A stretch of DNA of 64,000 bases from positions 1 to 64,000 of IMG/VR virus record IMGVR_UViG_3300023184_007611; one strand, 5' to 3'. Positions 3,601 through 62,342 of the stretch are shown here, piece after piece (positions within the stretch are counted from its first letter, which is position 1; every line of letters starts with the position of its first letter). Under the pieces are notes generated by a model. It saw nothing but the letters and a program-made list of their open reading frames with translations. It was not told where the DNA came from and made no database searches. The position numbers were made by a program, and so were the translations under genes. This DNA comes from a virus.

Positions 3601-4143
3601 ATGAAGATCAATATTGGCGGTGGACTAAAAAGATTTGATGGATTCGTAAATGTAGACGCAGATCCAAACACCAAACCAGAATACCTCCACAACCTAGAAA
3701 CAGAAAAACTTCCATTCGAAGACAGCACAGTAGAGGAAGTCAAAGCACACCATATCCTAGAACATATTCATGATTTGGGTCATGTCATAAAAGAAATATA
3801 TCGAGTATGCAAAAATGGTGCAGTAGTAGACATAGCTTTCCCACACCACTTTGCAAGGAACTTCTTTGGGGATTATACCCACTGTCGTGCTTTGACTGTA
3901 GAAATGTTCAAACAATTTAGCAAGAAATACTGCCTTTGGCACCAAGAAACCTATGGAAGTTCAAGCGGACATGCCATCACTCACAATGTTGACTTTGAAG
4001 TTTTGGACTACAACTATTCAATCCATGCAGACTATGCCCAACTTGAAGCTGAAGGCAAATATGAGGAAATCGCAAGATATGCAGAACACCTTGTAAATGT
4101 TTATCAAGATGTTTTTATCAAATTAATAGTTATAAAGGAATAA
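3601..4143 (+). CDS. Class I SAM-dependent methyltransferase (type 11-like)
   Basis: KINIGGG, NVD, LPFEDSTVEE, HILEH, EIYRVCK motifs. Confidence 0.85.
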   Translation: MKINIGGGLKRFDGFVNVDADPNTKPEYLHNLETEKLPFEDSTVEEVKAHHILEHIHDLGHVIKEIYRVCKNGAVVDIAFPHHFARNFFGDYTHCRALTVEMFKQFSKKYCLWHQETYGSSSGHAITHNVDFEVLDYNYSIHADYAQLEAEGKYEEIARYAEHLVNVYQDVFIKLIVIKE

Positions 4144-4146
4144 CAC

Positions 4147-5571
4147 ATGAAAAAAGAAGAAAATGTTGGTGTTAATGATCTTGAGCCATTCGTAATGACA
4201 CTCAAGAATTTAGGTGCAAAGAGTCTTGCCAAACAAGTGCTTGATGTGTTTGCTAAAAACGCTTTCTCGTTTGAGCAACAAGATAACATCAGTAAATGCT
4301 ATTTCAAACTGCAACATTACGAAGAAGCCATAAAGCATGGTGAAAAGGCACTTGTAAACGCACACAGCCCACAACTGATGTATGTGACTAGGTTCAATCT
4401 AATAAATCTTTATAATCACAACAACGAACCCGAAAAGGCATTGACCTACATCAATGCTAATGAAAAGCTGATTCCGATGGATTATGATTTGCAACTGGAA
4501 AAAGCATATGCTCTATTCCTTTCAAACAGGAAAACAGAAGCTGAAGAAATATTACACCATGTTCTTGCTAATTATAAAGAACTTCCAGAAGAAACCGCAC
4601 TCAAAATCAAATTCAATCTTGGCACATATTACCTTTACAGAGATAAATTCCAAGAAGGATTGAGGCACTTTATTCTTGATGGTGCAAAGATGAGATTGTG
4701 GAACTGCGAGACAATTTTCTCAAGGAACAAGAAGTTAAATCTTCCTTTCTGGGAAGGTTCTCCAGATGTTAAAAATTTGGTAATTTATGCAGAAGCGGGA
4801 AGTGGAGACGAGATCATTAACATAAGGTTCATGAAGCATCTCAAGGAAAGAGGAATTAATGCTTATTGGTATGCAGTTTGGCACAAGGAAGAATGGAAGA
4901 ATGAAAGAAAAGGACTTCTTGAGATATTTAAGAATAGTGGATTCCCTGTAATTACGAATTTGGAAGAATTGAAGGATATTCCAGACTTAAAGTGGACATA
5001 TTCAATGCATCTTCCTATCTATCTAAATCTTGAGTATAAAGACCTATGGGATAAGCCCTATATTTCGTCTTCTAAGGAATACGATGATAAGTGCAAGTTA
5101 GATGGAAAGTCGCCAAAAATAGGCATCAGGTGGGCTGGTTCACCTTTATATGATCATGATTTGCATCGTTCTTATCCTGTTAAAGAGTTATATGAAGTTT
5201 TGAAAGATGTGGATGGAACATTTTATAGCTTACAGAGGGATGATAATCTTGAGCAAATCAAGGATTTCCCCAATTTGATTGATTTATCTGAAAAAATGGA
5301 TTCTTTTCAAGAGACTTTGGGCTTTATTAAAAATCTTGATTTTGTTATAACAAGTTGCACTTCTATAGCACATTTGGCAGCAAGTTTTGGGAAGGAAGTA
5401 TTTATAATGGTTCCAATTTCTGCTTATTATGTTTGGAGTCATAGTGGTGACAAGTCTCCTTGGTATGGTGACAATGTCACACTTCTGAGGCAGGAAAAGC
5501 CAAGATGTTGGAAAGCACCATTGGAGAAATTAAGGAAGATATTGATTGAGAAAAAACTTTTAAAGCAGTAA
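4147..5571 (+). CDS. TPR-repeat plus GT9-like (GT-B) glycosyltransferase
   Basis: Helical TPR N-half; EAGSGDEI, IGIRWAGS, LDFVITSCTSIAHLAA, SPWY motifs. Confidence 0.85.
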   Translation: MKKEENVGVNDLEPFVMTLKNLGAKSLAKQVLDVFAKNAFSFEQQDNISKCYFKLQHYEEAIKHGEKALVNAHSPQLMYVTRFNLINLYNHNNEPEKALTYINANEKLIPMDYDLQLEKAYALFLSNRKTEAEEILHHVLANYKELPEETALKIKFNLGTYYLYRDKFQEGLRHFILDGAKMRLWNCETIFSRNKKLNLPFWEGSPDVKNLVIYAEAGSGDEIINIRFMKHLKERGINAYWYAVWHKEEWKNERKGLLEIFKNSGFPVITNLEELKDIPDLKWTYSMHLPIYLNLEYKDLWDKPYISSSKEYDDKCKLDGKSPKIGIRWAGSPLYDHDLHRSYPVKELYEVLKDVDGTFYSLQRDDNLEQIKDFPNLIDLSEKMDSFQETLGFIKNLDFVITSCTSIAHLAASFGKEVFIMVPISAYYVWSHSGDKSPWYGDNVTLLRQEKPRCWKAPLEKLRKILIEKKLLKQ

Positions 5572-5599
5572 ATATGATATATTTACTGAAGGATTTATT

Positions 5600-7450
5600 A
5601 TGCTGATCCTAGAAAAGTTGGACAAACCATTTGAGAAAATTAAAGCTCGTGAATCAATTGTTTTCACTTGTGATTATTGTGGAGATGAGTCTAATAAAAA
5701 AAAATATAGTTATGTGAATTCTCGTAAAATAATTGAAAAAGATTGCTGTTCCAACAGAGTCTGTGTAGCAAAAAAAATTAAAGAATCTAATTTAAAAGTA
5801 CATGGTGTTGAATATAACTTTCAAAGAAAAGATATAATAAATAAAATCAAAGATACTTGCATGAAAAAATTTGGTGTTGAACATGCAAGTAAATTATCGG
5901 AAACACAAGAAAAAAAGAAACAAACAAATTTAAAAAAATATGGATACGAACATGTTTCTTCCTCACCAGAAATCAAAGAAAAAGTAAAACAAACATGCTT
6001 GGAAAGATTTGGTGTCGAATATTCTTTGCAATCACCAGAAGTTAAAGAAAAATCAAGACAAACTAATATTGAAAAATATGGACATGAACATGCCATGCAA
6101 TCCCCAGAAATATTAGAAAAAACTAGACAAACAAACATTGAAAAATATGGTGTTGAGTATCAAATAAGTTCTTTGGAAACAAGAGAAAAAATAAAGCAAA
6201 CTAATATTCAGAGATATGGTGTAGAAAATCCAAATCAACGACCAGAAATATTAGAAAAAACCAGAGAAACAAATATTGAAAGATATGGCGTTGAGTACAT
6301 TATGCAATCTTCGGAAATGAAAGAAAAAGCAAGACAAACGAGTCTTGAAAAATTCGGACACGATCATGCTTCTTCCTCACCAGAGATCCAAGAGAAAGTA
6401 AGACAAACGAACTTAGAAAGGTTTGGACATGAATACGCTTCTTCTTCACCAGAATTCAAAGAAAAAGTAAGACAGACATGTTTGGAAAGATTTGGATACG
6501 AAAACCCTTTCCTTTCGCCAGAGATTCAAGAAAAAGTAAGACAAACAAATATAGAACGCTATGGATCTGCATATCCAACACATAAATTTGGCAAGACTCA
6601 AAAAGAAATACAAGACTGGTTGAATTCTTTTGGTTTTAACTTTCAATCAGATCATACAGTTTTAGGTAGCAAAGAGATTGATTTATATGATTCTAAATTA
6701 AACTTTGCTATAGAATATTGTGGATTGCACTGGCATCATGAAAACTCACCTCAACCAAGACCAAGTAACTACCACATCAGTAAGTTTAATATTTGTAAAG
6801 AAAAAGGCATTCAACTTATAACGATTTTCGAAGATGAATGGCTGAACAATCAAGAAGTAATCAAAAGTGTAATCCTTAGTAAACTTGGAGTTTTTGAAAA
6901 AAGACTTTATGCAAGAAAGTGTATAGCAAAAGAAATAAGTAAAAAAGATTTTACTGATTTCTGTGATAAACATCATGTACAAGGTGGTAATTCTTTAGCG
7001 AAAGTATGTTTTGGTTTATATTACGAAGATGAATTAATTGGTGTAATGGATTTAGGTGTCCATCATCGCAAACAAACAAAAGGTGAAATGGTTTTAACTC
7101 GTTTATGTTTTAAGGCTGGTCATCAGATAGTTGGTGGTGCAAGTAAACTATTTTCACATTGTGTAAATTGGTGCAAGAATAATGGAATCAAGAAGATAAT
7201 AAGTTGGAGTGATAGTAGGTGGAGCAATGGTTCTATTTATAAAAATTTAAATTTTAAATTAGAAGAAGAATTAGGTTCTGATTATGCATATGTGAATATG
7301 AGCTATCCAAAAGAAAGAATAAGCAAACAGAGTCAAATGAAATGCAATACTGGCTGTCCTAAAGATATAAGTGAAAAAGAATGGGCATTACAAAATGGAT
7401 TGAGCAGGATATGGGATTGCGGTAAAGTCAGGTGGGCATTTAATGTTTGA
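5600..7450 (+). CDS. Putative homing endonuclease with Zn-finger, ~24-aa KxRQTNxExYG repeats and C-terminal nuclease region
   Basis: CDYC; about 11 repeats; EIDLY...AIEYCG, ITIFEDEW, RIWDCG. Confidence 0.75.
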   Translation: MLILEKLDKPFEKIKARESIVFTCDYCGDESNKKKYSYVNSRKIIEKDCCSNRVCVAKKIKESNLKVHGVEYNFQRKDIINKIKDTCMKKFGVEHASKLSETQEKKKQTNLKKYGYEHVSSSPEIKEKVKQTCLERFGVEYSLQSPEVKEKSRQTNIEKYGHEHAMQSPEILEKTRQTNIEKYGVEYQISSLETREKIKQTNIQRYGVENPNQRPEILEKTRETNIERYGVEYIMQSSEMKEKARQTSLEKFGHDHASSSPEIQEKVRQTNLERFGHEYASSSPEFKEKVRQTCLERFGYENPFLSPEIQEKVRQTNIERYGSAYPTHKFGKTQKEIQDWLNSFGFNFQSDHTVLGSKEIDLYDSKLNFAIEYCGLHWHHENSPQPRPSNYHISKFNICKEKGIQLITIFEDEWLNNQEVIKSVILSKLGVFEKRLYARKCIAKEISKKDFTDFCDKHHVQGGNSLAKVCFGLYYEDELIGVMDLGVHHRKQTKGEMVLTRLCFKAGHQIVGGASKLFSHCVNWCKNNGIKKIISWSDSRWSNGSIYKNLNFKLEEELGSDYAYVNMSYPKERISKQSQMKCNTGCPKDISEKEWALQNGLSRIWDCGKVRWAFNV

Positions 7451-7465: not shown

Positions 7466-7669
7466 ATGATAAATTCTTATTACGACTATTCTGATTTTCA
7501 ATTTAGTTTTTTTTATTTTTTGTTTTGGCTTTCTGGTAAAATTGAAAAATTAATGAAAAACGAATATTACATTTTGTTCTTGGTGATAGCAATGATTTTC
7601 GTGTTGCAAATTGGTGTTCCTTTGATTGTAGATTATTTTATAATGGAAGATAAAAATGATGATAACTGA
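7466..7669 (+). CDS. Small membrane protein (start may be further downstream)
   Basis: Hydrophobic segment YYILFLVIAMIFVLQIGVPLIV. Confidence 0.45.
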   Translation: MINSYYDYSDFQFSFFYFLFWLSGKIEKLMKNEYYILFLVIAMIFVLQIGVPLIVDYFIMEDKNDDN

Positions 7670-8720
7670 AGAAGAGCCGATGTATGTCTCGGTAGAAATG
7701 AATCTTTATTCATTCGACATCTATAAGATTGTACTTTATGGACTTGAGCTACACCCTGCTGGTAAAGAAGGAACGATGTGCCTTACCAAAATAGAGTCTA
7801 TAGACAGTAGTAGGATTTCCGAAGAAATAATTGTTGTGAAGGCATGGTCTGAAAAGTTAGAACCTGCATCTTTAGTTTCAATAGAATTGCCGATGAAGCA
7901 TTTTGATAAAATTATTTTGATGGGTTTGCAAAGATATTTTGGTAAATCTGTCTATACGGCTAATCTTGTAGGTGTATTTCATCTTGTCAATTCAATTCTT
8001 TCTTCGTATGTTTTGAAAGTAATTCTTAGGGGCGAATTAGACAAAACAGACCAAGAAAAATCTGCCTCACAAATACTTGAGATGGCTTATCCTGAATTAT
8101 CTCAAAAAGATAGAAATAATAAACTGAATGCGGAATTGGATAAAATTAAGGGAGATGAGGCATCACAAAGCGAATTTAGGGATCATGATGCATTTATTGG
8201 TAAAGAATGGAATTCAGGATTAACAGGAGTAGTAGGACATCTTGGAAAAGAAGGGGAGGCTGGAAAAAGCCCACAGCAATATATAGCTGAACTCGAAAGG
8301 GCTATGCTTGATAATAGCGAATGCAATCTTGAGATTCAAAAACATCAAAAAGAATACATTGAAGAACTTAAAAAGATTATTGACACCACTAATAATTATA
8401 ATATTGAGCTTCAATCATATCATGGTTTACTGGAGATGCTAGTCGAGCGATACGAAAAAGCGATATTAGAGCATAAAAAAGAAACGACACAGCATTGGAA
8501 AAATCTTGGAATTGATGAAGTTCAGATACCAGATTTGGAAATGAACAAAAAGCTGTGGTCAGAAATTTATAATCCAGAAATTGCAAGGACAAAAACTGTG
8601 ACCAAAGATCTAGAAAAAGAAAACGCAGATTTAAAAGTCAAATTGAAAATGGCTTTAGGATTGCTTTCCGTTAGAGAAAAAATGTTGGTAAACTTAGAAG
8701 AAAGTAGTTCGCCACATTAA
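7656..8720 (+). CDS. Hypothetical protein, coiled-coil C-terminus
   Basis: Long ORF in a co-directional run. Confidence 0.7.
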   Translation: MMITEEEPMYVSVEMNLYSFDIYKIVLYGLELHPAGKEGTMCLTKIESIDSSRISEEIIVVKAWSEKLEPASLVSIELPMKHFDKIILMGLQRYFGKSVYTANLVGVFHLVNSILSSYVLKVILRGELDKTDQEKSASQILEMAYPELSQKDRNNKLNAELDKIKGDEASQSEFRDHDAFIGKEWNSGLTGVVGHLGKEGEAGKSPQQYIAELERAMLDNSECNLEIQKHQKEYIEELKKIIDTTNNYNIELQSYHGLLEMLVERYEKAILEHKKETTQHWKNLGIDEVQIPDLEMNKKLWSEIYNPEIARTKTVTKDLEKENADLKVKLKMALGLLSVREKMLVNLEESSSPH

Positions 8721-10802: not shown

Positions 10803-11360
10803 ATGCCTAGGAACTCCAAACCTAAAGAATTGAACTGGGATTTTTTGAGCCAATACTTTGAAGTAGATCCTTCAAGTGTTACTGGATTGACATGGAAAGA
10901 GAGAGAAGAAAGTGTTGGTCGTTGGAATGAACAATATGCTGGAGGACAGGCTGGAACCGTATTTACAGATGAAGACGGAAGAAAATATTGCAGTGTAATG
11001 TTGACTGTAGATGGAGTTGAAAGAAGGGTTTCAACTTGGAGGGCTGTTTACATGATTTCCAAAAAAACAAATATAAAAAAGGGCTTGACCATTGGGCATA
11101 TTGATGGAAATAATTTAAACAATGACATATCCAATTTGAAAGTTTGCCCTCATGTTGAAAATCTAGTCAATTCAAAGATTCACTGTAAAAATACATCTGG
11201 AGTGAAGGGCGTTCATTGGGATCATCGCAAGCAGAGATGGATTGCACAGATAACAGTAAAATCTAAAAAAATAAAGCTTGGAGCATTTTTGACAAAACAA
11301 GAAGCAATTGATGCTAGGGCAGAGGCCGAGAAAAAATATCGAAGTCAATACGCAAGATAA
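10803..11360 (+). CDS. HNH endonuclease with AP2-like DNA-binding domain
   Basis: HIDGNNLNNDISNL; NTSGVKGVHW...WIAQI...LGAF...EAIDAR. Confidence 0.88.
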   Translation: MPRNSKPKELNWDFLSQYFEVDPSSVTGLTWKEREESVGRWNEQYAGGQAGTVFTDEDGRKYCSVMLTVDGVERRVSTWRAVYMISKKTNIKKGLTIGHIDGNNLNNDISNLKVCPHVENLVNSKIHCKNTSGVKGVHWDHRKQRWIAQITVKSKKIKLGAFLTKQEAIDARAEAEKKYRSQYAR

Positions 11361-12414: not shown

Positions 12415-13317
12415 ATGACATTAGAAAATGTAGTTGGATTTTTAGCAAATACAGGAAAAACAAAACTTGCAATTGAAGTTGTTGATCACTTTTCAGAACA
12501 TTCAAAAGATTTAAACAATTACATTGAATTATCAAAAGCATATTTTTCAATTCATGAATATGATAAAGCAATAGATGTTTGTAAAAAAACACTTTCGATG
12601 ACATTTGATTATAATGTAAAAAATGAAATTTTAAATAACATGGTCAGAATTTATTTTTTTGCCAATATGAACGAAGAAGCATTGAAAATTTTAAATAATT
12701 TGCCTACCACTCCAGATGTTTTAGTCATGAAAGCCGACATATTAAACGCAATGGAACATAAAAAAGAAGTTTCTATGACTGGTTATTGGAGTTTAAAATT
12801 AGCAGAAACACATATTTTTTGTGAAGAGTTAGCAGAATGGATAAGTAATTATCTTGATAACAATAAAACACTTTATGATTTTGGATGTGGAATTGGCAGT
12901 TATTTAAAATATTTAAAAAACAAAGGATTCGTTGATTTGACTGGTTACGAAGGCGAAGTACCAAATAAAGAATTTTCAAATATATTAAAACAAGATTTAT
13001 CAGAAAGTTTTAAAGTAAATAAAAAAGGAAATGTGATTTGTTTAGAAGTTGGTGAACATATTCCAAAACAATATAAAGATGTGTTTTTAGATAATATTTG
13101 TAATGCTTGTGATAACAAGTTAATATTGTCTTGGGCTATAAGAGGTCAATATAGTTCTTCTCATATTAATTGTTTGAACAATGATGAAGTAATATCAGAG
13201 ATTGAAAAAAGAGGATTTCTTTATTTGAAAGAAGATTCTACAAAAGCAAGAAATATTATAAAGCCAGATGGGTGTAATTGGTTTTGTAATACTATTTTAA
13301 TATATGAAAAACTATAA
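12415..13317 (+). CDS. TPR-like domain plus class I SAM methyltransferase
   Basis: LYDFGCGIG, CLEVGEHIP; N-terminus resembles that of 4147..5571. Confidence 0.85.
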   Translation: MTLENVVGFLANTGKTKLAIEVVDHFSEHSKDLNNYIELSKAYFSIHEYDKAIDVCKKTLSMTFDYNVKNEILNNMVRIYFFANMNEEALKILNNLPTTPDVLVMKADILNAMEHKKEVSMTGYWSLKLAETHIFCEELAEWISNYLDNNKTLYDFGCGIGSYLKYLKNKGFVDLTGYEGEVPNKEFSNILKQDLSESFKVNKKGNVICLEVGEHIPKQYKDVFLDNICNACDNKLILSWAIRGQYSSSHINCLNNDEVISEIEKRGFLYLKEDSTKARNIIKPDGCNWFCNTILIYEKL

Positions 13318-13496: not shown

Positions 13497-14174
13497 ATGG
13501 AAATATTAGAACCAACACTTAACTGGAACTATAACACAGAAGTAAGTAATTCTTATATTATCACTATCAAAGATCATAAGAATTCAGAGCTTATGGGGCA
13601 ACGATGTCTTGAGTCTTGTGGTAGGGTTGGTCAAAAAGCAGTTATATGGGATGCCTTTGATGGTACTGGTGAAAAAATTAAAGTCCCAGAACATGCTAGA
13701 AATACTAATTGGTTAAAGTGGTTAAAATTAACAAATTACAGTTTAACTAAACCAGAAATTTGTTGTTGGCTTTCTCATTTTTCTCTTTGGTGTAAGTGCA
13801 TAGAAGAAGACATGCCTTTGGTAGCACTAGAACATGATGCTATTATGCTTCAACCTTTTACGCATCACAATGTTTTCAATTCAATTGTTTATTTGGGCAG
13901 CAGCGAACAGGTTAAAAGTAATTATTGGAATCCCATACCACCACACGCACAAATGGGTCATAATTATCGTTATATTCTCAGAACACACGCTTACTCAATT
14001 GATCCATTAATCGCTAAAAATTTGGTATCTCATGCGATTGAAAGAGGAATCTACACTGCAGTTGATGTAATGATGAAGATGCAAGAGTTTTCAATAGTAT
14101 CATTTGGTATTTTTGCAGCAGACATGGCAGGAGAAACTACCATATATGAACATGATGTTCCCTTTAAGGCTTAA
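13497..14174 (+). CDS. GT25-like glycosyltransferase
   Basis: YIITI, DAFDG, EICCWLSHFSLW, LEHDA, THAYSI. Confidence 0.75.
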   Translation: MEILEPTLNWNYNTEVSNSYIITIKDHKNSELMGQRCLESCGRVGQKAVIWDAFDGTGEKIKVPEHARNTNWLKWLKLTNYSLTKPEICCWLSHFSLWCKCIEEDMPLVALEHDAIMLQPFTHHNVFNSIVYLGSSEQVKSNYWNPIPPHAQMGHNYRYILRTHAYSIDPLIAKNLVSHAIERGIYTAVDVMMKMQEFSIVSFGIFAADMAGETTIYEHDVPFKA

Positions 14175-14176: not shown

Positions 14177-14890
14177 ATGGAAAAACTAAAAGAAACATTA
14201 AATTTCAATTATAATACAGAAATAGAATCTGCATATATCATTACGATAAAGGATCATGAGCTTTCGGAGTCGATGTCTAGAAGATGTGCGGAAAGCTGTG
14301 AGAAAGTTGGAATGCCATATAAAGTATCAGAAGCATTCAATGGAACTACTGGAGAAATAATAGTTCCAGAAAATTTGAAAAATCAAAATTGGTTAAAGTG
14401 GGTTAAAGTTGTAAATGAAGCTTTAGCATTTACTGAAATTTGTAATGTTTTAAGTCATGTTGCACTTTGGGCACATTGTGTTGAAATAGATAGACCAATT
14501 ATTGCTTTAGAGCATGATGCAATTGTTTTGCAAAACTTCACACATCATCCAGCATTTAATGCGATTATATATTTGGGAAGCATTGAGCAGCTTCAAAATA
14601 ATTATTGGGGTAGTATTCCAATTCATGGTCAGTTGAATTGCAATTATAGATTTTGTTTAAGAACACATTCTTATTCTATTGATCCAGTGATGGCAAAACG
14701 GCTTTTATCTAGTATTGTGAAAAATGGTATTACGACATCAATTGATGTAATGCTTAGAAGTGATATTTATACAATATTACAATTTGGAATATTTGCTTAT
14801 GATCAGGCAGATGGAGTTAGCACATCACCAGAAAAAGATGACAAGAAAAAAGATCCTAGACTTATGAGGATTAATAATAAGATTTTGTAA
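14177..14890 (+). CDS. GT25-like glycosyltransferase (tandem paralog)
   Basis: Colinear similarity to 13497..14174 (LSHVALW, LEHDA, RTHSYSIDP). Confidence 0.75.
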   Translation: MEKLKETLNFNYNTEIESAYIITIKDHELSESMSRRCAESCEKVGMPYKVSEAFNGTTGEIIVPENLKNQNWLKWVKVVNEALAFTEICNVLSHVALWAHCVEIDRPIIALEHDAIVLQNFTHHPAFNAIIYLGSIEQLQNNYWGSIPIHGQLNCNYRFCLRTHSYSIDPVMAKRLLSSIVKNGITTSIDVMLRSDIYTILQFGIFAYDQADGVSTSPEKDDKKKDPRLMRINNKIL

Positions 14891-16621: not shown

Positions 16622-17203
16622 GTGGATTTAGAAAAAACATATCAAGAAAAGTTTGGGAAAGAGACTGGTGTTAGGTCATTAGGATGGAGTAATGAACACA
16701 CTCAGAAAATAAGATTTAAGATATTGATGGAAATATCTGGATTGGAGATCACGGATAGTGTTTTGGATGTTGGTTGTGGTCATGGTGATTTGAGCTATCA
16801 TTTTGATGATTATCTTGGAATTGATTTGCGAAATTCTGCCATCATTACCGCTAAGCAAAAGTATGAGGATAAATGGAAGGGCTTGTTTCAAGGGAATTTC
16901 TTAAATCAATCTGTGTTTGAAACTGAAGGCGAATTTGATTGGTGTTTTGCATCTGGAATTTTTGCGTTTAAAGATAATTGGGAAGAAATAACACAAAATA
17001 CAATTCAGAAAATGTTTAGCTTATGCAAAAAAGGAATTGCTTTCAATTTGCTTTCTGATTCTTGTGAGAACAAAGATGTTGATATGAAACATTGTACAAC
17101 AGATGATGTTTCATTTTTGATGAAATTAATTACTGAAAAGTATGTAATAAGGAATGATTACTTACCAAATGATCTTACTGTTTACGCCTATAAGATTAAT
17201 TAA
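16622..17203 (+). CDS. Class I SAM methyltransferase
   Basis: SLGW...Q.IRF, SVLDVGCGHGDL, ASGIF; GTG start with AGGA RBS. Confidence 0.85.
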   Translation: MDLEKTYQEKFGKETGVRSLGWSNEHTQKIRFKILMEISGLEITDSVLDVGCGHGDLSYHFDDYLGIDLRNSAIITAKQKYEDKWKGLFQGNFLNQSVFETEGEFDWCFASGIFAFKDNWEEITQNTIQKMFSLCKKGIAFNLLSDSCENKDVDMKHCTTDDVSFLMKLITEKYVIRNDYLPNDLTVYAYKIN

Positions 17204-17961
17204 ATTAAAACATTTAATTTAATCAACCTTTCAATTGTTTTATTAATATTAACTGTATTTAATTTATTTACATTATTAAAATTAAACCATAAAGCATTTT
17301 TTGGATCAGTAAAATCATTTGTCATATATGGTTTTTGACCAATGTAACAATTTATTCCATTTGCTATACGCATAAAGTTAAACCAAATATCATCACCAGT
17401 TTCACAACATTCTGTGTAAATTTTTCTTTTAAAAATAATATCTTTTGTTTTATTAAAAAATTTAGGATGATACAAGACACCTGCTTTTCCAACATGGAAA
17501 TTAAATAGACTATTATTTGTTAAACTTGCTCTTATATCATAATCTATTTTATTTTCATTATTTTCCATCATTGTAAATCCTCTATAAGATATACAACAAT
17601 TTTTTTCTTTGTAATCATTAACATAATTTTCTATTAATGAAGGGTGATATTCAGTATCGTCATCTATTGTTATAATTAAACAATCTTCTTCTAATTTTTT
17701 TTTCAACAAAGGCAATAGTTTTCTATATGGACCTATGTTTTTACACCATTTGATTTTAAAAAGTTCATTTTTTTTTAAAAAAACACTTAAGTCCGCTTTG
17801 ATTATTTTGTTTTTAAAGCCTTCGTCTAAAAGATAAGGTTCTTCAGATAAATAAATTATGCATTGGCTTGGCTTTAATGTTTGTTTTTTTATGCTTTTTA
17901 ATGTTTTCAAAAGAATATTTTGATTTTGAAATATACTAGTTAAAGATATGTATATTTTCAT
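17200..17961 (-). CDS. GT-A fold (GT2-like) glycosyltransferase
   Basis: ISLTSI, IGPYRKLLP, IITIDDD, GDDIW. Confidence 0.8.
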   Translation of the reverse strand: MKIYISLTSIFQNQNILLKTLKSIKKQTLKPSQCIIYLSEEPYLLDEGFKNKIIKADLSVFLKKNELFKIKWCKNIGPYRKLLPLLKKKLEEDCLIITIDDDTEYHPSLIENYVNDYKEKNCCISYRGFTMMENNENKIDYDIRASLTNNSLFNFHVGKAGVLYHPKFFNKTKDIIFKRKIYTECCETGDDIWFNFMRIANGINCYIGQKPYMTNDFTDPKNALWFNFNNVNKLNTVNINKTIERLIKLNVLI

Positions 17962-18569
17962 AATACCTCTAAAAATCTATGTTTATATTTTTCACATTCT
18001 ACTTTAGAGAAAACATATTCTTTCACAGCTTTTTCATGTATGTAAAATTCACACAAATTATTTATATCTTGCAAATTTGTATCATCCATAATGATTACGC
18101 TTTTTGAATTGCATAAGCTTAAGCAAAAATTCAAATCTTTTTCTGCTTGTTTTACATTGTGATCTCCATCTATATGGATTATATCGAATTTTAATTTCAT
18201 TTCAATTAATTCTGGCAATGCTATTGTTGAGTTTTTTAATATAAGTTTTATATTTTTGTAATCCTTGCATATTTGCTTGTAACATGGTATTACATAAGAG
18301 TGACTATTTATGTCTATACAAGTCATGTTTATTTCTGGATCAATTATTTTCATTAGCAATGTCGAGAAACCAGCATTGAATCCTATTTCTAATATATTTT
18401 TAGGTTTAAGTAATTCTATAAGATTTACAATGTTTTTTTGCTTGTAAAACATTGCAGGTTCTTTTGTTTTTTTTAAATGACTAGAGTAAAAATTACCTTC
18501 AAGAGGATCATTAATTAAATTAAGTAAGTTTTTTTCTATGTATTCTTGCCAAGTATTTATAAAATTCAT
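17958..18569 (-). CDS. Methyltransferase (Methyltransf_24-like)
   Basis: ILEIGFNAGFS, FDIIHIDGDH, IIMDD. Confidence 0.85.
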   Translation of the reverse strand: MNFINTWQEYIEKNLLNLINDPLEGNFYSSHLKKTKEPAMFYKQKNIVNLIELLKPKNILEIGFNAGFSTLLMKIIDPEINMTCIDINSHSYVIPCYKQICKDYKNIKLILKNSTIALPELIEMKLKFDIIHIDGDHNVKQAEKDLNFCLSLCNSKSVIIMDDTNLQDINNLCEFYIHEKAVKEYVFSKVECEKYKHRFLEVL

Positions 18570-46516: not shown

Positions 46517-47071
46517 ATGAATATCATTAAAAAAATCATCGAATCAGTTAGTGGCTTTAAAAAGAATAATATAATTAATAAAATAGAGCCTAAAAAACAA
46601 AACTATTCTCATTTAGAAAAATTTATTAATAACAGCAAGGAAGCTTTTAATTCTATGAATTTTTCTTTATCAAAATTAAATGATGCTTCTAAAATACCAA
46701 ATGGATGTCCTAAAAAAAACAATGAAGCAATTGCTAATCAAATAAAAGCATTAAAAAACATCACTTTGATATTTAAAAAAATTATGATTAACATTAGCGA
46801 AACAAAAAATTTCTTAAATATTAATGAACCAATAAAAGAAATTGAAATATTAAATAATGATTTTATTATTATTGAAAAAATTAATTTGTTTTTAGGAAGT
46901 GTAAAAGACGATGAATCTTTAATAGGAAAACTACTTTATGCAAAACAAGAAAAAGACATAAAAAGAAAAAAATATGTTTTGAGAAATCAAATAAATAGAC
47001 TTAAAAATAAATTAAACAATTTAAATGAAATAATTAAAAGAATAGAAAAAATTTACATTGATAAAATTTGA
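46517..47071 (+). CDS. Hypothetical basic coiled-coil protein
   Basis: AAGGTG RBS. Confidence 0.6.
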   Translation: MNIIKKIIESVSGFKKNNIINKIEPKKQNYSHLEKFINNSKEAFNSMNFSLSKLNDASKIPNGCPKKNNEAIANQIKALKNITLIFKKIMINISETKNFLNINEPIKEIEILNNDFIIIEKINLFLGSVKDDESLIGKLLYAKQEKDIKRKKYVLRNQINRLKNKLNNLNEIIKRIEKIYIDKI

Positions 47072-47073
47072 TG

Positions 47074-47715
47074 TTAAGGACATGGAAATTTTTTCTTACC
47101 ACAAGATGCTTCTATTGCTGCAATTCTAGCAACAAGAGCATCAATTGCTTCTTGACATTTCTCAAGATCTTTTATATCTTTGTTTTTTATATTTTTAGCA
47201 CTTTTTAAATTAGCTTCTGCGTTTGACAGTGTTCCCTCTAGAGTTAAATTGGTTTTTTTTATTGATTCTATTTCAGAAATTCTTTTCAATATTTGTTGAT
47301 TAATTTTATTTTGACATCTTTCTATTGCTCCTGGTCCAGCTTGTGAAGCACTTTGAACACATAAATTTCTTTCTTCTTCAAGAGTTTTTATGCTGTTGTT
47401 TTTTTCTTTAATTGTTGCTTTATTACTTTCAATACTAGCATTTATTCCATCTAACACTTTCTGAGCATTGTCTATAGCTTTATCATATTTATTTGCTGTA
47501 ATCCTCGATTGAATATTATTTTTTGTTGTTTCTTTGCTTGCTTTTTGTGAAAGCAAATGAGGAATACTGCAGAATGTATCTTTTGTGCATTCTGGAGTAG
47601 TAGTAGGTTTCTTAGTAGTTGTAGGCTTAACAGTAGTGCTAGGTTCTGTTGTTGTGGAAGATGCAAAATTTAAGCCTATGATTTTTCTATTAATATTTTT
47701 ATGTATTTTTTTCAT
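47074..47715 (-). CDS. Thr-rich linker plus Cys-bracketed coiled-coil protein
   Basis: TTTEPSTTVKPTTTKKPTTTPEC...; same architecture as 61518..62342. Confidence 0.75.
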   Translation of the reverse strand: MKKIHKNINRKIIGLNFASSTTTEPSTTVKPTTTKKPTTTPECTKDTFCSIPHLLSQKASKETTKNNIQSRITANKYDKAIDNAQKVLDGINASIESNKATIKEKNNSIKTLEEERNLCVQSASQAGPGAIERCQNKINQQILKRISEIESIKKTNLTLEGTLSNAEANLKSAKNIKNKDIKDLEKCQEAIDALVARIAAIEASCGKKKFPCP

Positions 47716-47794
47716 TTTATCCTAATTTTAAATTTTATAATTAAATTATATATTATTGAATAAATAAATTTATCATTTTTAAAATATATAAGAT

Positions 47795-48307
47795 ATGATA
47801 AATATTGCATTTTTAATTATGATTAAGTATAATATTTATTTGCAAGAAATTAAATACAAAAAAGAAATTGAAGAAATTCACATTAATTGTCAACTAAGAT
47901 TCCCAAATGATAAAGATAAATGTTCTATCGAAAGTCTTATAAGTGAATACTTAGAATCTAAAATAAATAATTATCCAGTTATGAGTCATGCTTATCATTT
48001 TGGTTATATAGGAAGATGCTGCACTAGAGAAATATTAGTATTCAATCAAAGTTATCAATCATATTGTAAATATAAAATAGAAACTGGCAATCAATATGAA
48101 ATAAATTTTTACTCAAATGCTTTAAGAGAAGCACAAGAACTTTATAAATGCTACGATTTATTAGATGATTCTTTTTGTGATGGGTTTTCTATGATAAGAA
48201 GAAGAAGATCTCTTAATGATTTAAAAAAATTAATTGGGGAAGAAAGTTTTTATAAAGGAATACTTCCTCCATCAATTCCAATTTGGCGTTTTAAAATAGT
48301 TGAATAA
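47795..48307 (+). CDS. Hypothetical protein
   Basis: ORF. Confidence 0.6.
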   Translation: MINIAFLIMIKYNIYLQEIKYKKEIEEIHINCQLRFPNDKDKCSIESLISEYLESKINNYPVMSHAYHFGYIGRCCTREILVFNQSYQSYCKYKIETGNQYEINFYSNALREAQELYKCYDLLDDSFCDGFSMIRRRRSLNDLKKLIGEESFYKGILPPSIPIWRFKIVE

Positions 48308-50371: not shown

Positions 50372-51232
50372 ATGAGAAAAATAATTGTAATTTTTTTGTT
50401 TTTCATAATTGCTTCTACTTCTCAAGCTCAAAAATATAGAAGTATTTTACCGCCAAGCCCTCCATTTCCTCCTCCGTTAAACAATACAGTTCAAGCCCAA
50501 ATTGCCAATCAAAACATTAATTTTAATACTGGAAGTAGTTCTAGTGGTATTGGTGGTTTTGGCGGTGGATTCCAACAAAATATAGGCGGTATTCAAGGTA
50601 CTGCTCAATACACACAAAATAATACTCCAGGCATGCAAATTTCGCAACTTTATCAAATTCCACTTTCTACAGGTGGTGGTGGATTTGGTCAAGGTGGTGG
50701 TGGATTCGGTCAAGGCGGTGGTGGATTCGGTCAAGGCGGTGGTGTCAATACAACTTTTGGTGGCGGATTTGGACAAGGTGGCGGATTTGGACAAGGTGGC
50801 GGATTTGGACAAAGCGGTGGTGGATTCGGTCAAGGTAGTGGTGTCAATACAACTTTTGGTGGCGGATTTGGACAAGGTGGCGGATTTGGACAAAGCGGTG
50901 GTGGATTCGGTCAAGGTAGTGGTGTCAATACAACTTTTGGTGGCGGATTTGGACAAGGTGGCGGATTTGGACAAAGCGGTGGAGTTCAAGCAATTGGTGT
51001 GAATAATCTTTTTTATTCTATGGCAATGCAAGGTATTATGTCTGGTGTTGGTGGTTCAGCATTTCAGAGTGGCGGTGGTGGCAATATGGGCGGTCAAAAT
51101 ATGCGTGGCGGTCAATTTGGTGGTGGTAACATGGGTGGTCAAAATATAGGTGTTTTTGGTGGTGGCAATATGGGTGGTGGTGGATTTGGTCAATTTGGAG
51201 GTGGATTTAACAATGGTGATAATGGTCTATAG
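50372..51232 (+). CDS. Secreted Gly-rich repeat protein
   Basis: Signal peptide MRKIIVIFLFFIIASTSQA; GGFGQ(G/S)G and GVNTTFGG repeats. Confidence 0.8.
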   Translation: MRKIIVIFLFFIIASTSQAQKYRSILPPSPPFPPPLNNTVQAQIANQNINFNTGSSSSGIGGFGGGFQQNIGGIQGTAQYTQNNTPGMQISQLYQIPLSTGGGGFGQGGGGFGQGGGGFGQGGGVNTTFGGGFGQGGGFGQGGGFGQSGGGFGQGSGVNTTFGGGFGQGGGFGQSGGGFGQGSGVNTTFGGGFGQGGGFGQSGGVQAIGVNNLFYSMAMQGIMSGVGGSAFQSGGGGNMGGQNMRGGQFGGGNMGGQNIGVFGGGNMGGGGFGQFGGGFNNGDNGL

Positions 51233-51703: not shown

Positions 51704-51760
51704 TAATTTATTTGCTCAATAATGAATAAATAAAGTATAATTCTTCACATGAGGTGTAAT

Positions 51761-52264
51761 ATGGCAACAAGATGGATTGCTCAAAAAAACAAATCATCAT
51801 GTGGTCCAGTTGCTATATTAAATATATTGAAATGGCTAGAAGTAGAAATTAATTATAATAAAGATTATTGCAAATATAAAAGAAAATGTAAATGTACAAA
51901 AGAAGGAACACATCAGCCATATTTTGAAAAAAGCCTAAATAGTATTGTTGGAATTGATGTAAAAAGCAAAAATTTGCCAACTATAAAAGAAATAGAAGAT
52001 GCTTTAAATTCAAATTATATAATAATAATGAAATCAACATTTATGTTTGATTTTAAGAAAATAGAAGGACATTTTTTTATAATAAGTGAAATGACAGAAG
52101 AAAGTTTATTTTGCATAAATGACATTTATGGTCAACATACATGGTACAACAAACATATATTTGCACAGTATTATTTACAATATCACAAAGGATATTGTGA
52201 GGAATGTGGTACTTCTAAATTATGCGGAATATCGCCATATGCTTGGTTTGTTAAAAAAAAATAG
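51761..52264 (+). CDS. Peptidase C39-like papain-fold protein
   Basis: QKNKSSCGP, GHFFII, IND; GAGGTG RBS. Confidence 0.7.
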   Translation: MATRWIAQKNKSSCGPVAILNILKWLEVEINYNKDYCKYKRKCKCTKEGTHQPYFEKSLNSIVGIDVKSKNLPTIKEIEDALNSNYIIIMKSTFMFDFKKIEGHFFIISEMTEESLFCINDIYGQHTWYNKHIFAQYYLQYHKGYCEECGTSKLCGISPYAWFVKKK

Positions 52265-58616: not shown

Positions 58617-59273
58617 ATGACTCAATGTAGACCTGATGAAATTCAAGAAGATTCTTTGTATTTTGACATAGGAGCAAATGTAGGCAATTGGTCTTTGGCA
58701 AACATTGAAAGATGTGAAAAAATAATTGCTGTAGAACCATCAATAAAAAATTACGAAATATTGAGTAAAAAATGCGAAAATACAAATATTACATGTTTAA
58801 ACTATGCAGTAAGCAATGAAGATAAAAAAGAAGTTGATTTTTATGAATGCAAAAGCGATTATTGTCTATCAACAATAAATAAAGATTGGCTGTGCTCTGA
58901 AAATTCTAGATTCTACGGCAAAGAATACACTAAGATAACTTGCCAAACAATAAGCTTAGACAAACTAATAGAACAATATGGAGTGCCAGACTTAATTAAA
59001 ATAGATGTAGAAGGGGCAGAGCATTTGGTGATTTCATCTTTAACACAAAAAGTAAAAACCTTGTGTTTTGAATGGGCACAAGAATTTTATTTTGTAACAA
59101 AACATAGCATTAATCATTTAACAAAAATTGGATTCACTAAATTTCATGTTCAATTTTACGACAATTATATTTATATACCAAAAGAAGAAGAATACACAGA
59201 AGATTTAAAAATTATAGAAGAGAAACTAAACAAAGAAACAAATAATAATTGGGGCATGGTTTGGGCTATGTAA
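58617..59273 (+). CDS. FkbM-family methyltransferase
   Basis: FDIGANVG, AVEP, NYAVS, LIKIDVEGAE. Confidence 0.92.
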   Translation: MTQCRPDEIQEDSLYFDIGANVGNWSLANIERCEKIIAVEPSIKNYEILSKKCENTNITCLNYAVSNEDKKEVDFYECKSDYCLSTINKDWLCSENSRFYGKEYTKITCQTISLDKLIEQYGVPDLIKIDVEGAEHLVISSLTQKVKTLCFEWAQEFYFVTKHSINHLTKIGFTKFHVQFYDNYIYIPKEEEYTEDLKIIEEKLNKETNNNWGMVWAM

Positions 59274-59279: not shown

Positions 59280-60485
59280 TTACATAGCAATTATTTCTTT
59301 TCTGAAAGTTGAAAAAGTAGGAAATTGTATCCATTCCCCTTTGAAAAACTGCTCTTTTCCTAATAAATGATACATTATGACTATTGTTGAAAAATCATTA
59401 TTAAATAAGTAAGAATTATTTTCGTACTTATCATAAAATGATCTTAATATATTTTTAAAGTTTTTCCAAGAATCATCGCTGCAAATATCTTTAAATTCTA
59501 TTCTATCACTTAATATCTTATTCTTTAATGAAAACTCTGGTGTGCCTTGAAACCCAGCTAATAATGAACTCTTGCATATTATCTTTTTTCCAACTACCTC
59601 AAATGGAAAATAAAAATATCTCATTAATATTTTATCATACCTCTGATTTTTTAAAAGAGGAAATTCAAAAGACTTTAAAGCATTGCTTTTAATCTTATTA
59701 TCTATTTCATATGTTAATGGCATGTAACAACATAAAAGATGTTGATTACCACTAAATCCACAAAAATCAAAATGTGTATGCGAAAAAAATTCAGATAATG
59801 CATCCATCTTTATGTGATCTAACTCAGCATTTAGAAAACTTAAATTAAAACTCTTTATTTCCTTTTCTGAAAATATCCTTTCTGAAATCCTATCTAAAGA
59901 ATGTTTTGTTAAATAAATCTCATATTTATCTCCTTCTGCATTTATCTCTTTTAAATGCTTAAACAAAGTTCCATTTTCCGTTTTTAAAGATTCAATCTTT
60001 AAAAACTTAATATAAACTTGGTTGTTTAAAAAGCCTAATGTAAAAAAATAATAAGGAAAAAAATTCTTAAAGTTGCTATTCTTCAGCAAGTAACTAGTAA
60101 TACATGATGTTGTTAATTGCAACATAGCAAACAAGAATTTCCTAGTGTCAAATTTATAATCAGCTTTAAATTCTATTAATAATTTTTGAATAACTTGTTT
60201 CTCTAAGATTTTAATTGTTGTGTGACTACTAGGGCCGAAATTAGGATCAAAGTTACTTAATCTTATGATTTTTAAAAATTCATAAACTACCTTCTCATGG
60301 CTAGTTTTATCCTTTTTTTCACTTAACTCAACGAGCATTTTTCTATATGTTTTTTTAAAAACAACAGCTATGTTTAGGGGTGCTTTATCTTCTGAAAATA
60401 ATTCTAAAGAACAAAATTTATTGAAAAAATCCTTCTCCAATAAATCTTTTTTTAATTTCTGTTTCCTTTTCATCTCTTTTGACAT
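59280..60485 (-). CDS. Hypothetical protein
   Basis: Start moved to ATG 60485 with AAGGAG RBS. Confidence 0.65.
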   Translation of the reverse strand: MSKEMKRKQKLKKDLLEKDFFNKFCSLELFSEDKAPLNIAVVFKKTYRKMLVELSEKKDKTSHEKVVYEFLKIIRLSNFDPNFGPSSHTTIKILEKQVIQKLLIEFKADYKFDTRKFLFAMLQLTTSCITSYLLKNSNFKNFFPYYFFTLGFLNNQVYIKFLKIESLKTENGTLFKHLKEINAEGDKYEIYLTKHSLDRISERIFSEKEIKSFNLSFLNAELDHIKMDALSEFFSHTHFDFCGFSGNQHLLCCYMPLTYEIDNKIKSNALKSFEFPLLKNQRYDKILMRYFYFPFEVVGKKIICKSSLLAGFQGTPEFSLKNKILSDRIEFKDICSDDSWKNFKNILRSFYDKYENNSYLFNNDFSTIVIMYHLLGKEQFFKGEWIQFPTFSTFRKEIIAM

Positions 60486-60692
60486 GGCAAACTCCTTTAC
60501 CAAAGTAATATTTATTATTATTATGATTGTGCATGACAAAGACAAGATTTAAATTTTTTTTTTAAGTATATAATTTAAATATTAACTTAATCCAAGGGAT
60601 ATATTTAAAATTAATCTTCAATTAATTTTACTTAATATTTAATTGAAACATAAAATTTAAAAATTAGATATATTTTTTATTTTTTCTAAATT

Positions 60693-61401
60693 CTAAAATT
60701 TTTCTAAATCTGCATATTGATAGTTTTCAAAACTAAAATTAAAAAGTTCTATGTCTTTTGCATGTATTTTCTCTACTAATTCTATTGTTTTGTCATCATA
60801 GTAAGTTTTGAAAAATTCATGCTTTTCTTCGTGTATATTTTTTTGATCTTTTTCTTTTACTTTGTTTAAATCTTCTGTTCTGTTACTTATTTTTTTTATT
60901 AATTCAAAATCATTGTTTAAATTGTGTAAATTGATTATATAATCAACTCCAATTTTATCATTTAGATTTATATAATTATAATAGCTATTATTTTTAATTA
61001 ATTTTTCTAGATCACTTTCCTCATATAGATGCAAAATCCAATCTTTAAAAGTATATTTCTTTTCTATAATTCCAATCCAATACTTAATTCCTTCTGGATT
61101 TATTGGGTTTTTCATAGTTAAGATCTGTTTTCTTGTTCTATAATTAAATTCTGAAAGAATTCTCTCCCAAGGATTTCTAAATATTACAAACTTAAAATAA
61201 TCCTCAAAAGGAATAGATTGATATATCTTTTTCTTATCATAAAATTCTCTTTTTATATCTGCTAACATGCGATGGCCAGTTTTTTTACCTGTGATCAGGA
61301 ATATCTGAATAACCAAAATAGGTTTTTACTGTTCCTCCACCTGTCTTTGGTATATGTACAAATAACAATGGTGTTTTATTTTTTCTTGGATTTTGTATCA
61401 T
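60693..61401 (-). pseudogene. Sulfotransferase family 2 gene split by a frameshift
   Basis: 61401-61285 encodes FVHIPKTGG then TAA; the rest (FRNPWERILS...DIELF) is in the +1 frame. Confidence 0.8.
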
Positions 61402-61517
61402 TAAAAAATTTCCTTTTTATTAACACATAAATTTTTTGTTAACATGTAATTTATATACAGTCAATAAATAAAAAATTTTACTACAGTAATACATAATAAA
61501 AAAGGAGATTTGCTAAC

Positions 61518-62342
61518 ATGAGGAAAATATTTAAAAATCTATCTGGTGAAGGTTCATCTACGCCACCGCCTGCGACAACATCAGAGCCAACTACAACTGC
61601 TTCACCTACGACAACATTAGAGCCAACTACAACTGCTTCACCTACGACAACATTAGAGCCTACTACAACACCACCTACTACAACACCACCTACTACAACT
61701 GCTTCACCTACGACAAAACCTCCTACTACTACTAAAAAACCTACAACAACTACAACAACTACTACTCCAAATTGTGTTGCTGACCTTAAAACATATAAGT
61801 CGTATTGTTCGCAAGAAACTACAGACTTAGCAAGTAAAAAAGATAAAATAGCTTCACGCAAAACTAAATTATCAGATAAAAAAACTAAAGAAGGCGAATT
61901 GAAAACAGCACAACAAAATTATAAAGAAAATGTAAGTGCCTACAAAAAAGCTTTAGCAGCCAGAAACAAAGATATTGAAAACATTGCTGCACAAAAAAAA
62001 ATAATTGCAGCAAAAACTAAAATAATTAATGATCCAAACTCAACTAAAAAAGCTAAAAATGATGCAATAATAGCAAAGAAAAATGCTATTGCTGCAAATG
62101 TAAAAAACCAAGCAAGTTATGATAAACATACAGCAACATATGAAAAAGCATTTAAAGATGCAAGTTTTTATGATAAATTGAAAAATTCTTTGGAAAGTTC
62201 AATTGCAAGTCTAACAAAACAAATTAATGCTTTAGATAAACAAATACAAGCCCTAACTGATAGCTTATCAGCACTTAATCAATCTAAGTCAGATTTAAGA
62301 AATACTATGGTTGATAGAGGATGCAATGAGCCTTCTTGCTAA
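61518..62342 (+). CDS. Mucin-like Thr/Pro linker plus Cys-bracketed Lys/Ala-rich coiled coil
   Basis: EPTTTASPTTT repeats, TTTKKPTTT, PNC...C...GCNEPSC; AAGGAG RBS. Confidence 0.82.
   Translation: MRKIFKNLSGEGSSTPPPATTSEPTTTASPTTTLEPTTTASPTTTLEPTTTPPTTTPPTTTASPTTKPPTTTKKPTTTTTTTTPNCVADLKTYKSYCSQETTDLASKKDKIASRKTKLSDKKTKEGELKTAQQNYKENVSAYKKALAARNKDIENIAAQKKIIAAKTKIINDPNSTKKAKNDAIIAKKNAIAANVKNQASYDKHTATYEKAFKDASFYDKLKNSLESSIASLTKQINALDKQIQALTDSLSALNQSKSDLRNTMVDRGCNEPSC

Follow-up and report, generated by a model that had tools for sequence, protein, structure and literature searches.

Described systems and the locus under study

Hypervariable clusters of about 35-45 kb, in which tail-fibre genes lie together with many glycosyltransferases (GTs), have been described as the host-recognition clusters of pelagimyophages and cyanomyophages, and their authors read the enzymes as modifying the O-chain of the host (PMC7029224). 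A cyanomyovirus with 13 glycosyltransferases has been discussed likewise (PMC12801897). The O-glycosylation of the virion itself is known from Che8-type mycobacteriophages, in which glycans were measured on the C-termini of the capsid and tail-tube subunits (Freeman 2023, as cited in PMC12619734). Here we describe a region that has likenesses to both kinds of system: the first 64 kb (64,000 nucleotides, hereafter the window) of the 101-kb linear IMG/VR contig IMGVR_UViG_3300023184_007611, which encodes Thr-rich and RCC1 beta-propeller proteins and a cassette of GTs, methyltransferases and sulfotransferases. In many lineages this cassette is physically linked with genes of virion fibres, and the best-supported mechanism, to which we assign a probability of roughly 0.45 from sequence comparison and structural modelling, is that the phage enzymes would glycosylate the phage's own fibres.

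The likeness to the host-recognition clusters of P-SSM2, S-SCSM2R and S-SRM01 lies in the large hypervariable region packed with GTs and epimerases beside tail-fibre genes. S-SRM01, a cultured freshwater cyanomyovirus of the family Kyanoviridae, has in common with the window the order fibre, RCC1, TPR protein, sulfotransferase, GT and epimerase, and its TPR, RCC1 and sulfotransferase proteins are 37-60% identical to their counterparts here. However, compared with aquatic T4-like myophages, this lineage is much larger (330-480 kb implied) and has in addition Thr tracts of mucin scale, collagen fibres of the (G-X-T)n type and enzymes in which a methyltransferase is fused to a GT. As far as the mycobacteriophage system is described in PMC12619734, it resembles the present one in its phage-encoded GTs, which are proposed to act on the phage's own structural proteins inside the infected cell, but the candidates here are fibre, RCC1 and mucin-like proteins known from genes alone, the enzyme families differ and sulfation is added in this phage. 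The kind of system, whether a GT-rich host-recognition cluster or a glycosylated virion, is already known, and what is new is a conserved module around a TPR protein with a GT9-type catalytic domain (TPR-GT9) that is tied to RCC1 fibres, plus a stalk of mucin scale.

The Bacillus exosporium protein BclA and the fibrils of Mimivirus are known cases in which collagen-like Gly-X-Thr repeats or fibrils receive O-glycans in the cytoplasm, with sugars that are methylated or uncommon. Gly-X-Thr collagen is found in the fibres of the window's close relatives, just outside the span of the window, and among solved structures the GT25 encoded at 33613-34287 (-) comes nearest to Mimivirus R655 (E 7e-6) and to procollagen galactosyltransferase 1 (E 2e-3). 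The likeness of the fibres is one of repeat type.

Linkage of the enzyme cassette to fibre genes

Six contigs (G001 to G006) share the enzyme cassette at 75-99% protein identity, and three more distant ones include two complete genomes, G009 (363.5 kb) and G010 (194.6 kb), in addition to G007. The window starts within an array of RCC1 genes, which in G003, G004 and G006 comes after collagen/RCC1/S74 fibres. The first of these genes (172-1398, +; Pfam RCC1/WD40_RLD, E 6e-74) encodes a probable tail-fibre accessory or receptor-binding part that is 56-60% identical to the products of the RCC1 genes located 3' of the long-tail-fibre gene in S-SRM01, and the second (1882-3051, +; RCC1/WD40_RLD, E 2e-70) is syntenic with RCC1 genes of G003, G004, G006 and S-SRM01. 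The contig G004, whose TPR-GT9 is 99.6% identical to that of the window, runs 22 kb past the window's left end. This left stretch encodes a 946-aa collagen-like fibre with G-X-T in 215 of its 216 triplets, a protein of 623 aa whose linkers are of the (T9-AAP)n type, and a fibre of 2,445 aa in which collagen repeats alternate with four RCC1 propellers and which ends in an endosialidase-type chaperone. After these fibres come RCC1 genes, a DUF4376 gene, a small methyltransferase gene and the TPR-GT9 gene, the same order as at the window start. The counterpart in G006 (L038:8510-11863) matches Collagen, RCC1 and Peptidase_S74 in Pfam, and Thr occupies 96-99% of the collagen Y positions in close relatives. 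In S-SRM01 the order is baseplate wedge, long tail fibre, RCC1, RCC1, TPR homologue, RCC1, sulfotransferase, GT and epimerase. Fusion fibres of the collagen/RCC1/Peptidase_S74 type were seen to carry from one to four RCC1 propellers.

When IMG/VR was searched with a TPR-GT9 profile, 47 loci were obtained, of which 45 were analysed and grouped into 28 lineages at 90% identity. RCC1 genes were located upstream of the TPR-GT9 gene and on the same strand in 20 of the 28 lineages, and the small methyltransferase gene was directly upstream in 22. A sulfotransferase gene was present within 10 kb in 19 lineages and a GT25 gene, within the same distance, in 11. We consider RCC1 and collagen-like fibres, rather than the Thr-tract proteins described below, the most probable conserved acceptors of the cassette.

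The two conserved multidomain enzymes

The core enzyme of the module is encoded at 4147-5571 (+) and carries a TPR domain (Pfam) fused to a predicted glycosyltransferase domain of the GT-B fold. Its AlphaFold2 model (AF2; predicted local distance difference test, pLDDT, 88.9) has helical repeats at residues 13-180 that match TPR structures with Z 13-14. The best Foldseek matches of the model were Xanthomonas OGT, Arabidopsis SPINDLY and human OGT, a ranking explained by the architecture that it shares with these GT41 enzymes, a GT-B catalytic domain preceded by an N-terminal TPR superhelix. However, for the catalytic domain the GT9 heptosyltransferases are the closer match (Z 15-17), the individual values being 17.3 for Veillonella 3tov, 16.5 for WaaF 1psw, 15.4 for TibC 4rap and 15.3 for WaaC 2h1f. 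The GT9 alignments cover about 240 residues with a root mean square deviation (rmsd) of 3-4 A, whereas the OGT alignments have an rmsd of about 16-17 A. The model shows, then, a predicted GT-B fold of the GT9 type, without sequence-level membership of either family: the GT41 catalytic domain PF13844 was not matched in Pfam, and the GT9 profile PF01075 gave no match in Pfam or NCBIfam at E <= 0.01, neither for this protein nor for the product of 24974-25855, the ESM Atlas providing leads only. TibC has the same catalytic fold but lacks the TPR domain. More than 1,488 proteins of a large collection belong to the TPR-GT9 family.

The second enzyme, of 781 aa (22632-24977, -), consists of an FkbM and a TylF-type methyltransferase domain, a GT2 domain and a C-terminal helical region (Pfam), and its homologues occur in huge phages. 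The likeness of a GT2 of this region to protein or peptide glycosyltransferases, which had been proposed from the sequence, held: in phmmer searches of the PDB the nearest structures to this GT2 domain were GmaR, the flagellin O-GlcNAc transferase of Listeria (E 1.7e-8), SunS (E 1.8e-6) and 7msk (E 2.2e-6), and no solved GT2 outside the GmaR/SunS/ThuS-like group, whose E-values ranged from 1.7e-8 to 5e-6, was found at E <= 0.01. The score against the NCBIfam SunS model (TIGR04195; E 5e-10) was 38.7 bits, far below the equivalog cut-off of 350. The two N-terminal methyltransferase domains are present only in the phage enzyme and not in GmaR, SunS or ThuS. GmaR acts on flagellin, and SunS and ThuS act on peptides.

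No membrane segment was predicted in any of the transferases, and no polytopic Wzx/Wzy-like protein was found on the contig. Together with the likenesses of the TPR-GT9, of the GT2 domain of the 781-aa enzyme and of one GT25, this favours proteins as the probable acceptors.

Threonine-rich and RCC1 proteins

The largest Thr-rich protein of the window (969 aa; 39193-42102, +) combines a propeller, a mucin-like stalk and a Cys module. Residues 1-345 correspond to a seven-bladed lactonase-type propeller (PF10282, E 3e-44), which is followed by about 71 PTTTT(K/T/V)K heptads over some 540 aa, then by about 30 consecutive Thr and finally by a Cys-rich module. The protein is 39% Thr overall, and its long tandem Pro/Thr/Ser repeats are like those of mucin-type PTS domain proteins. 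Tandem Repeats Finder described the heptad array as 70.8 copies of a 21-nt unit with 83% matches, so that the array is genuine rather than a product of recent slippage. The GC skew falls sharply, to -0.33, at 40001-44000, due to the C-rich Thr and Pro codons of the array on the coding strand and not to a replication feature. Homologues of the propeller head tail-fibre-like proteins of 1,300-1,660 aa, some of them with a phage tail-collar domain, and the product of 39193-42102 is thus a probable virion fibre. Its cationic (PTTTTKK)n stalk, with the propeller as head, would measure roughly 130-160 nm if extended.

The Cys module of this protein is 46% identical to two modules of a fourth Thr-rich protein, of 798 aa, encoded just outside the window (contig 77439-79835), and since these modules are common to both, the Thr-rich proteins form a modular family. 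The other two Thr/Pro-tract proteins of the window, encoded at 47074-47715 (-), without a Pfam family, and at 61518-62342 (+), both start with a short basic N-terminus that is followed by the Thr/Pro tract, and both have a Cys-flanked coiled coil. In none of the Thr-rich proteins was a hydrophobic N-terminal signal peptide found, so that the secretory signal of mucin-type PTS proteins is missing. The Cys-flanked modules suggest, from sequence, that these proteins are extracellular, and their fibre homology and synteny would place them in the virion. A pattern-based search of IMG/VR did not reveal close relatives of the mucin-like propeller or of either Thr-tract coiled-coil domain, and a tblastn search with the C-terminal part of the 798-aa protein against cultured phages gave no match.

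Two further RCC1 proteins are encoded in the window. That of 27301-28680 (+; Pfam RCC1, E 2.5e-86) has an N-terminal domain and a short Pro/Thr linker at residues 87-100, and that of 37359-39089 (-; Pfam RCC1) has a 195-aa N-terminal domain and a Pro/Thr linker at residues 194-206. The earlier note on this DNA had listed three Thr/Pro-tract proteins without signal peptide and Pro/Thr linkers in two RCC1 proteins, and all of these are present as described, the linkers being short (about 13 aa).

Strain-specific gene content

Relatives whose shared proteins are 75-99% identical differ by whole gene blocks, such as 37359-42102 and 43614-48307, and the region is therefore hypervariable in content. 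G003 is syntenic over nearly the whole region, yet it lacks both of these blocks, including the RCC1 gene at 37359-39089 (-), as well as the Thr-tract gene at 61518. The propeller-mucin gene at 39193-42102 is absent from all of G003 to G006. No poly-Thr open reading frame (ORF) is present in the complete genomes G009 and G010, although both have the RCC1, sulfotransferase, methyltransferase and TPR-GT9 genes, and a lineage at 58% identity has G-X-Q, not G-X-T, collagen beside the same enzymes. Since the core is kept without poly-Thr genes, and with Gln at the collagen Y position, the Thr tracts are not a required acceptor; the mucin-like proteins are strain-specific additions and not the conserved acceptor. 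The earlier note had paired the three Thr-tract proteins specifically with the enzymes, and this pairing did not survive the comparison, as G003 and G004 keep the enzyme core without those genes. Likewise, the co-occurrence of Thr-repeat genes with TPR-GTs in related genomes, which the same note had put forward as a check, failed for the named genes in G003 to G006, G009 and G010. A single case hints at a local link between Thr tracts and enzymes: the block 43614-48307, which has no counterpart in G003 or G004, contains an FkbM methyltransferase, a GT11, an epimerase resembling GDP-L-fucose synthase (Fcl) and the Thr-tract gene at 47074 (-).

Another length-variable repeat protein belongs to the module. 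The coiled-coil protein encoded at 7656-8720, downstream of the TPR-GT9 gene, has homologues in G001 and G002 with an inserted block of TPP and (GEATNTK)n repeats, which is absent from the protein of the window and from G003. HNH or HNH-AP2 homing-endonuclease genes, some of them tandem paralogues, were located at 10803-11360, 32264-32692 and contig 85590-88623, a finding that fits the mosaic gene content here.

Acceptors of the enzyme cassette

According to the mechanism that we favour, soluble GTs would build O-linked glycans on the phage's own fibre proteins in the cytoplasm of the host. Fibres of the RCC1 and collagen-like (Gly-X-Thr)n kinds are candidate acceptors, as are, for this strain, the Thr-tract proteins, including the stalk of about 540 residues. 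Initiation on protein would likely be the task of the TPR-GT9 (4147) and the FkbM-TylF-GT2 enzyme (22632-24977, -). Extension of the glycans would fall to the GT25, GT11 and remaining GT2 enzymes, and the fused and neighbouring methyltransferases and sulfotransferases would tailor them before the fibres join the virion. We infer that the acceptors are proteins rather than host glycans, and the chemical details in the same way. The O-glycosylation of virion fibres had been suggested in the earlier note, and it stands in so far as the cassette is tied to fibre genes, the TPR-GT resembles OGT and SPINDLY, and tail-fibre-like proteins have N-terminal domains homologous to the propeller; the specific choice of the three named proteins as acceptors is not supported.

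Several observations weigh against fibre glycosylation. In addition to the poly-Thr-free genomes and the G-X-Q lineage described above, the linkage to fibre genes could merely reflect a shared hypervariable island of host-interaction genes. Late-promoter-like TATAAATA motifs were not enriched (17 found against 15.5 expected), and a late-promoter co-regulation of the cassette was dropped for this near-expected count of TATAAATA. The PDB neighbours of the enzymes are a sample biased toward well-studied protein glycosyltransferases. Finally, lipopolysaccharide (LPS), O-antigen and capsule pathways typically use all of the GT9, GT25, GT11, GT2, FkbM and sulfotransferase families, and the equivalent clusters of pelagimyophages and cyanomyophages have been read as modifying the host O-chain or cell wall (PMC7029224, PMC12801897).

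The last two points are also the ground of a different explanation, in which the cassette consists of auxiliary genes for changing the surface of the infected host (its LPS, O-chain, capsule or glycoproteins), for example to block superinfection or to keep progeny from sticking to debris, and the Thr tracts are unmodified spacers. The GT9-fold, GT25, GT11, GT2, FkbM, sulfotransferase and Fcl-like epimerase genes would then be standard parts of surface-polysaccharide synthesis, and the persistence of the core enzymes in genomes without poly-Thr genes would be accounted for. However, an initiating polyprenyl-phosphate transferase, a flippase, a polymerase, a ligase and a membrane-anchored GT are all absent from the contig, which represents about 30% of the genome and whose host could supply them. 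Furthermore, the TPR fusions and the GmaR/SunS-like affinities suggest protein or peptide acceptors, and the same-strand order of fibre, RCC1, methyltransferase and TPR-GT9 in most lineages exceeds loose co-location. We regard host-surface remodelling as a strong rival, though a less probable one than fibre glycosylation.

A combination of the two explanations would have the conserved core modify RCC1 and fibre proteins while the GT2, GT11 and FkbM cassettes, which vary among strains, act on host glycans, mucin-like proteins or small molecules. It agrees with the mosaic gene content among relatives of 75-99% identity, with the insertion at 43614-48307, where the FkbM, GT11 and epimerase genes travel with a Thr-tract gene, and with G009 and G010, which hold the core alone. 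As a composite, however, it is separated from neither of its components by any present result, and we consider it unlikely.

It is far less probable that some or all of the GTs decorate modified bases of the phage DNA against restriction. T4-type phages do glycosylate hydroxymethylcytosine, diverse viral GTs are described as hypermodifying DNA (Pyle 2024, as cited in PMC12619734), and a Mom-like domain protein encoded at 5600-7450 is a probable DNA-modification enzyme. However, a canonical thymidylate synthase (TIGR03284, 269 bits where 108 are required), accompanied by a DHFR, is the sole enzyme of the TS fold that was found, and no hydroxymethylase was seen in the 101 kb of the contig, outside which about 70% of the genome lies. 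Moreover, GT25, GT11, TPR fusions, FkbM/TylF enzymes and sulfotransferases are not families known from DNA glycosylation, and the conserved linkage is to fibre genes and not to nucleotide metabolism. The Mom-like protein itself has 616 aa, with three DUF7487 repeats and a Mom-like/GNAT domain; its gene lies between the TPR-GT9 gene and the next conserved gene and is present in G004 and G005 and absent from the corresponding site of G003.

Further enzymes of the window

About ten glycosyltransferases had been counted in the sequence by the earlier note, and this number was borne out with seven firm and three probable members. The seven that exceeded the Pfam thresholds are, besides the GT2 domain within 22632-24977 (-), the tandem GT25 paralogues at 13497-14174 (+; PF01755, E 9e-14) and 14177-14890 (+; PF01755, E 6e-11), a pair kept in G001 to G005; the GT25 at 33613-34287 (-; PF01755, E 4e-24); the GT2 at 18975-19715 (+; Glyco_tranf_2_2, E 2e-9, and Glycos_transf_2), which has a weak PDB match (E 0.0055) to GalT1 of the Fap1 adhesin pathway; the GT2 at 28677-29558 (-; Glycos_transf_2, E 1.3e-8); and a GT11 of the alpha-1,2-fucosyltransferase family at 44232-45035 (+; PF01531, E 4e-16). 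Of the three probable ones, the TPR-GT9 was recognised by its structure, the GT2-like protein of 17200-17961 (-) remained below threshold (Glycos_transf_2, E 7e-4; 19.9 bits where 23.3 are required), and the product of 24974-25855 (-) is a lead only, as a possible GT9-like enzyme whose viral clusters in the ESM Atlas are partly annotated Glyco_transf_9. Pfam, NCBIfam and PDB sequence searches gave no match for this last protein, its model from a five-sequence alignment (pLDDT 43) was unusable, and hhalign against the TPR-GT9 family gave no clear result. No unannotated GT was identified beside the Thr-tract genes, at 59280-60545 (-) and its neighbours, in Pfam (E <= 1) and PDB searches.

The FkbM/TylF-type and other methyltransferases, the two sulfotransferases and the epimerase, which had also been predicted, were all confirmed by Pfam or NCBIfam. 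The small class-I S-adenosylmethionine (SAM) methyltransferase that precedes the TPR-GT9 (3601-4143, +; Methyltransf_11) has MftM, an oligosaccharide methyltransferase, as its weak best NCBIfam match (E 1e-5). The FkbM methyltransferases of 43614-44228 (+; PF05050, E 3e-18; TIGR01444 above cut-off) and 58617-59273 (+; PF05050, E 3e-17; TIGR01444, 90 bits) are separate from the fused enzyme. An O-methyltransferase like CmcI and rhamnosyl-O-methyltransferase is encoded at 17958-18569 (-; Methyltransf_24, E 7e-11, Methyltransf_3 and RMNT_CmcI), a SAM methyltransferase at 16622-17203 (+; Methyltransf_31/25), a DOT1-like SAM methyltransferase at 32981-33601 (-; Pfam DOT1, E 1e-12) and a possible, weakly matching SAM methyltransferase at 12415-13317 (+; Methyltransf_23, E 2.4e-5, below cut-off). 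The sulfotransferase of 21445-22239 (+; Sulfotransfer_1/3, E 1e-15) is the conserved member of the module and is 49% identical to the S-SRM01 sulfotransferase that adjoins an RCC1 gene; its gene is overlapped by that of a GNAT acetyltransferase (20996-21448, +; Acetyltransf_1, E 4e-12). The second sulfotransferase (60693-61316, -; Sulfotransfer_2, PF03567, E 1e-10) is the divergent neighbour of the Thr-tract gene at 61518. The NAD-dependent sugar epimerase/reductase of 45022-46005 (+; Pfam Epimerase, E 3e-40) has GDP-L-fucose synthase as best match (NCBIfam Fcl, E 7e-31, below the equivalog cut-off).

No prolyl or lysyl hydroxylase of the kind that modifies collagen was found in the window. 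A weak match to WelO5, of the 2-oxoglutarate (2OG) oxygenase family, was observed in the fibre module of G006 (L038:7808-8431), and the annotated 2OG-Fe(II) oxygenase gp339 of S-SRM01 adjoins the TPR protein. Protein hydroxylation by such 2OG-oxygenase-like genes near the fibre modules of these two phages is possible.

Genome type and host

The genome has a G+C content of about 30%, short genes on both strands and one tRNA-Arg. The CheckV completeness of the contig, 30%, implies a whole genome of about 330 kb, and the estimates for the contig and its relatives range from 330 to 480 kb. Capsid, portal and terminase genes are missing from the 101-kb contig, and T4 gp23 was found neither there nor in G001 to G004. 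However, the module-bearing G007, G009 and G010 encode a capsid protein of the T4 gp23 type. This, together with the protein identity to S-SRM01, identifies the element as a probable huge T4-like phage, in agreement with the earlier description of it as a phage, and the window as the predicted variable host-recognition region of a very large T4-like freshwater myophage, directly downstream of its tail-fibre genes. A giant-virus origin was rejected, given the absence of a match to the capsid of nucleocytoplasmic large DNA viruses (NCLDV) and the gp23 of the relatives.

As to the host, the DUF1559 protein of 29720-30676 has a prepilin N-terminal methylation motif that is intact. Its identity to proteins named from Gemmataceae (Planctomycetota) is 60-66%, and from this similarity a planctomycete host, already supposed before this analysis, is plausible. 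The phage DNA is nevertheless about 30% G+C, and the hint conflicts with the cyanophage affinity of the fibre module. Three other features of the region were observed. An M-(N/E/D)-F-K-x-W-L-L leader is common to many otherwise unrelated proteins (25891-27234, 62383-63999 and contig 68897-77246). The protein of 50372-51232, kept in G003 and G004, has, after a clear signal peptide, Gly repeats of the GGGFGQ type over about 200 residues (36% Gly), and a small Peptidase_C39-like (papain-fold) protein without an obvious partner is encoded at 51749-52264.

Implications for aquatic T4-like phages

Abundant T4-like phages of aquatic habitats commonly have GT-rich islands beside their tail-fibre genes, and these islands are routinely annotated as host LPS genes without test. 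It is a tentative proposal, and on balance a doubtful one, that a widespread freshwater lineage of these phages has a true phage glycocalyx, in which the methyltransferase/TPR-GT9/sulfotransferase/GT25 module would be a dedicated machine for the glycosylation, methylation and sulfation of RCC1 and collagen-like fibres, extended in some strains by stalks of mucin scale. The earlier note suggested that such phage glycans might form a shield or mimic sulfated glycans; the mimicry is speculation. The question of the acceptor can be tested directly, given the conservation of the TPR-GT9 enzyme and the availability of S-SRM01 in culture. If these phages do decorate their own fibres, virion glycosylation would extend from one group of actinophages to a major environmental lineage, with sulfation and methylation in addition, the interpretation of these genes as auxiliary metabolic genes would change, and so would our view of the host range, adsorption and stickiness of phage particles in water.

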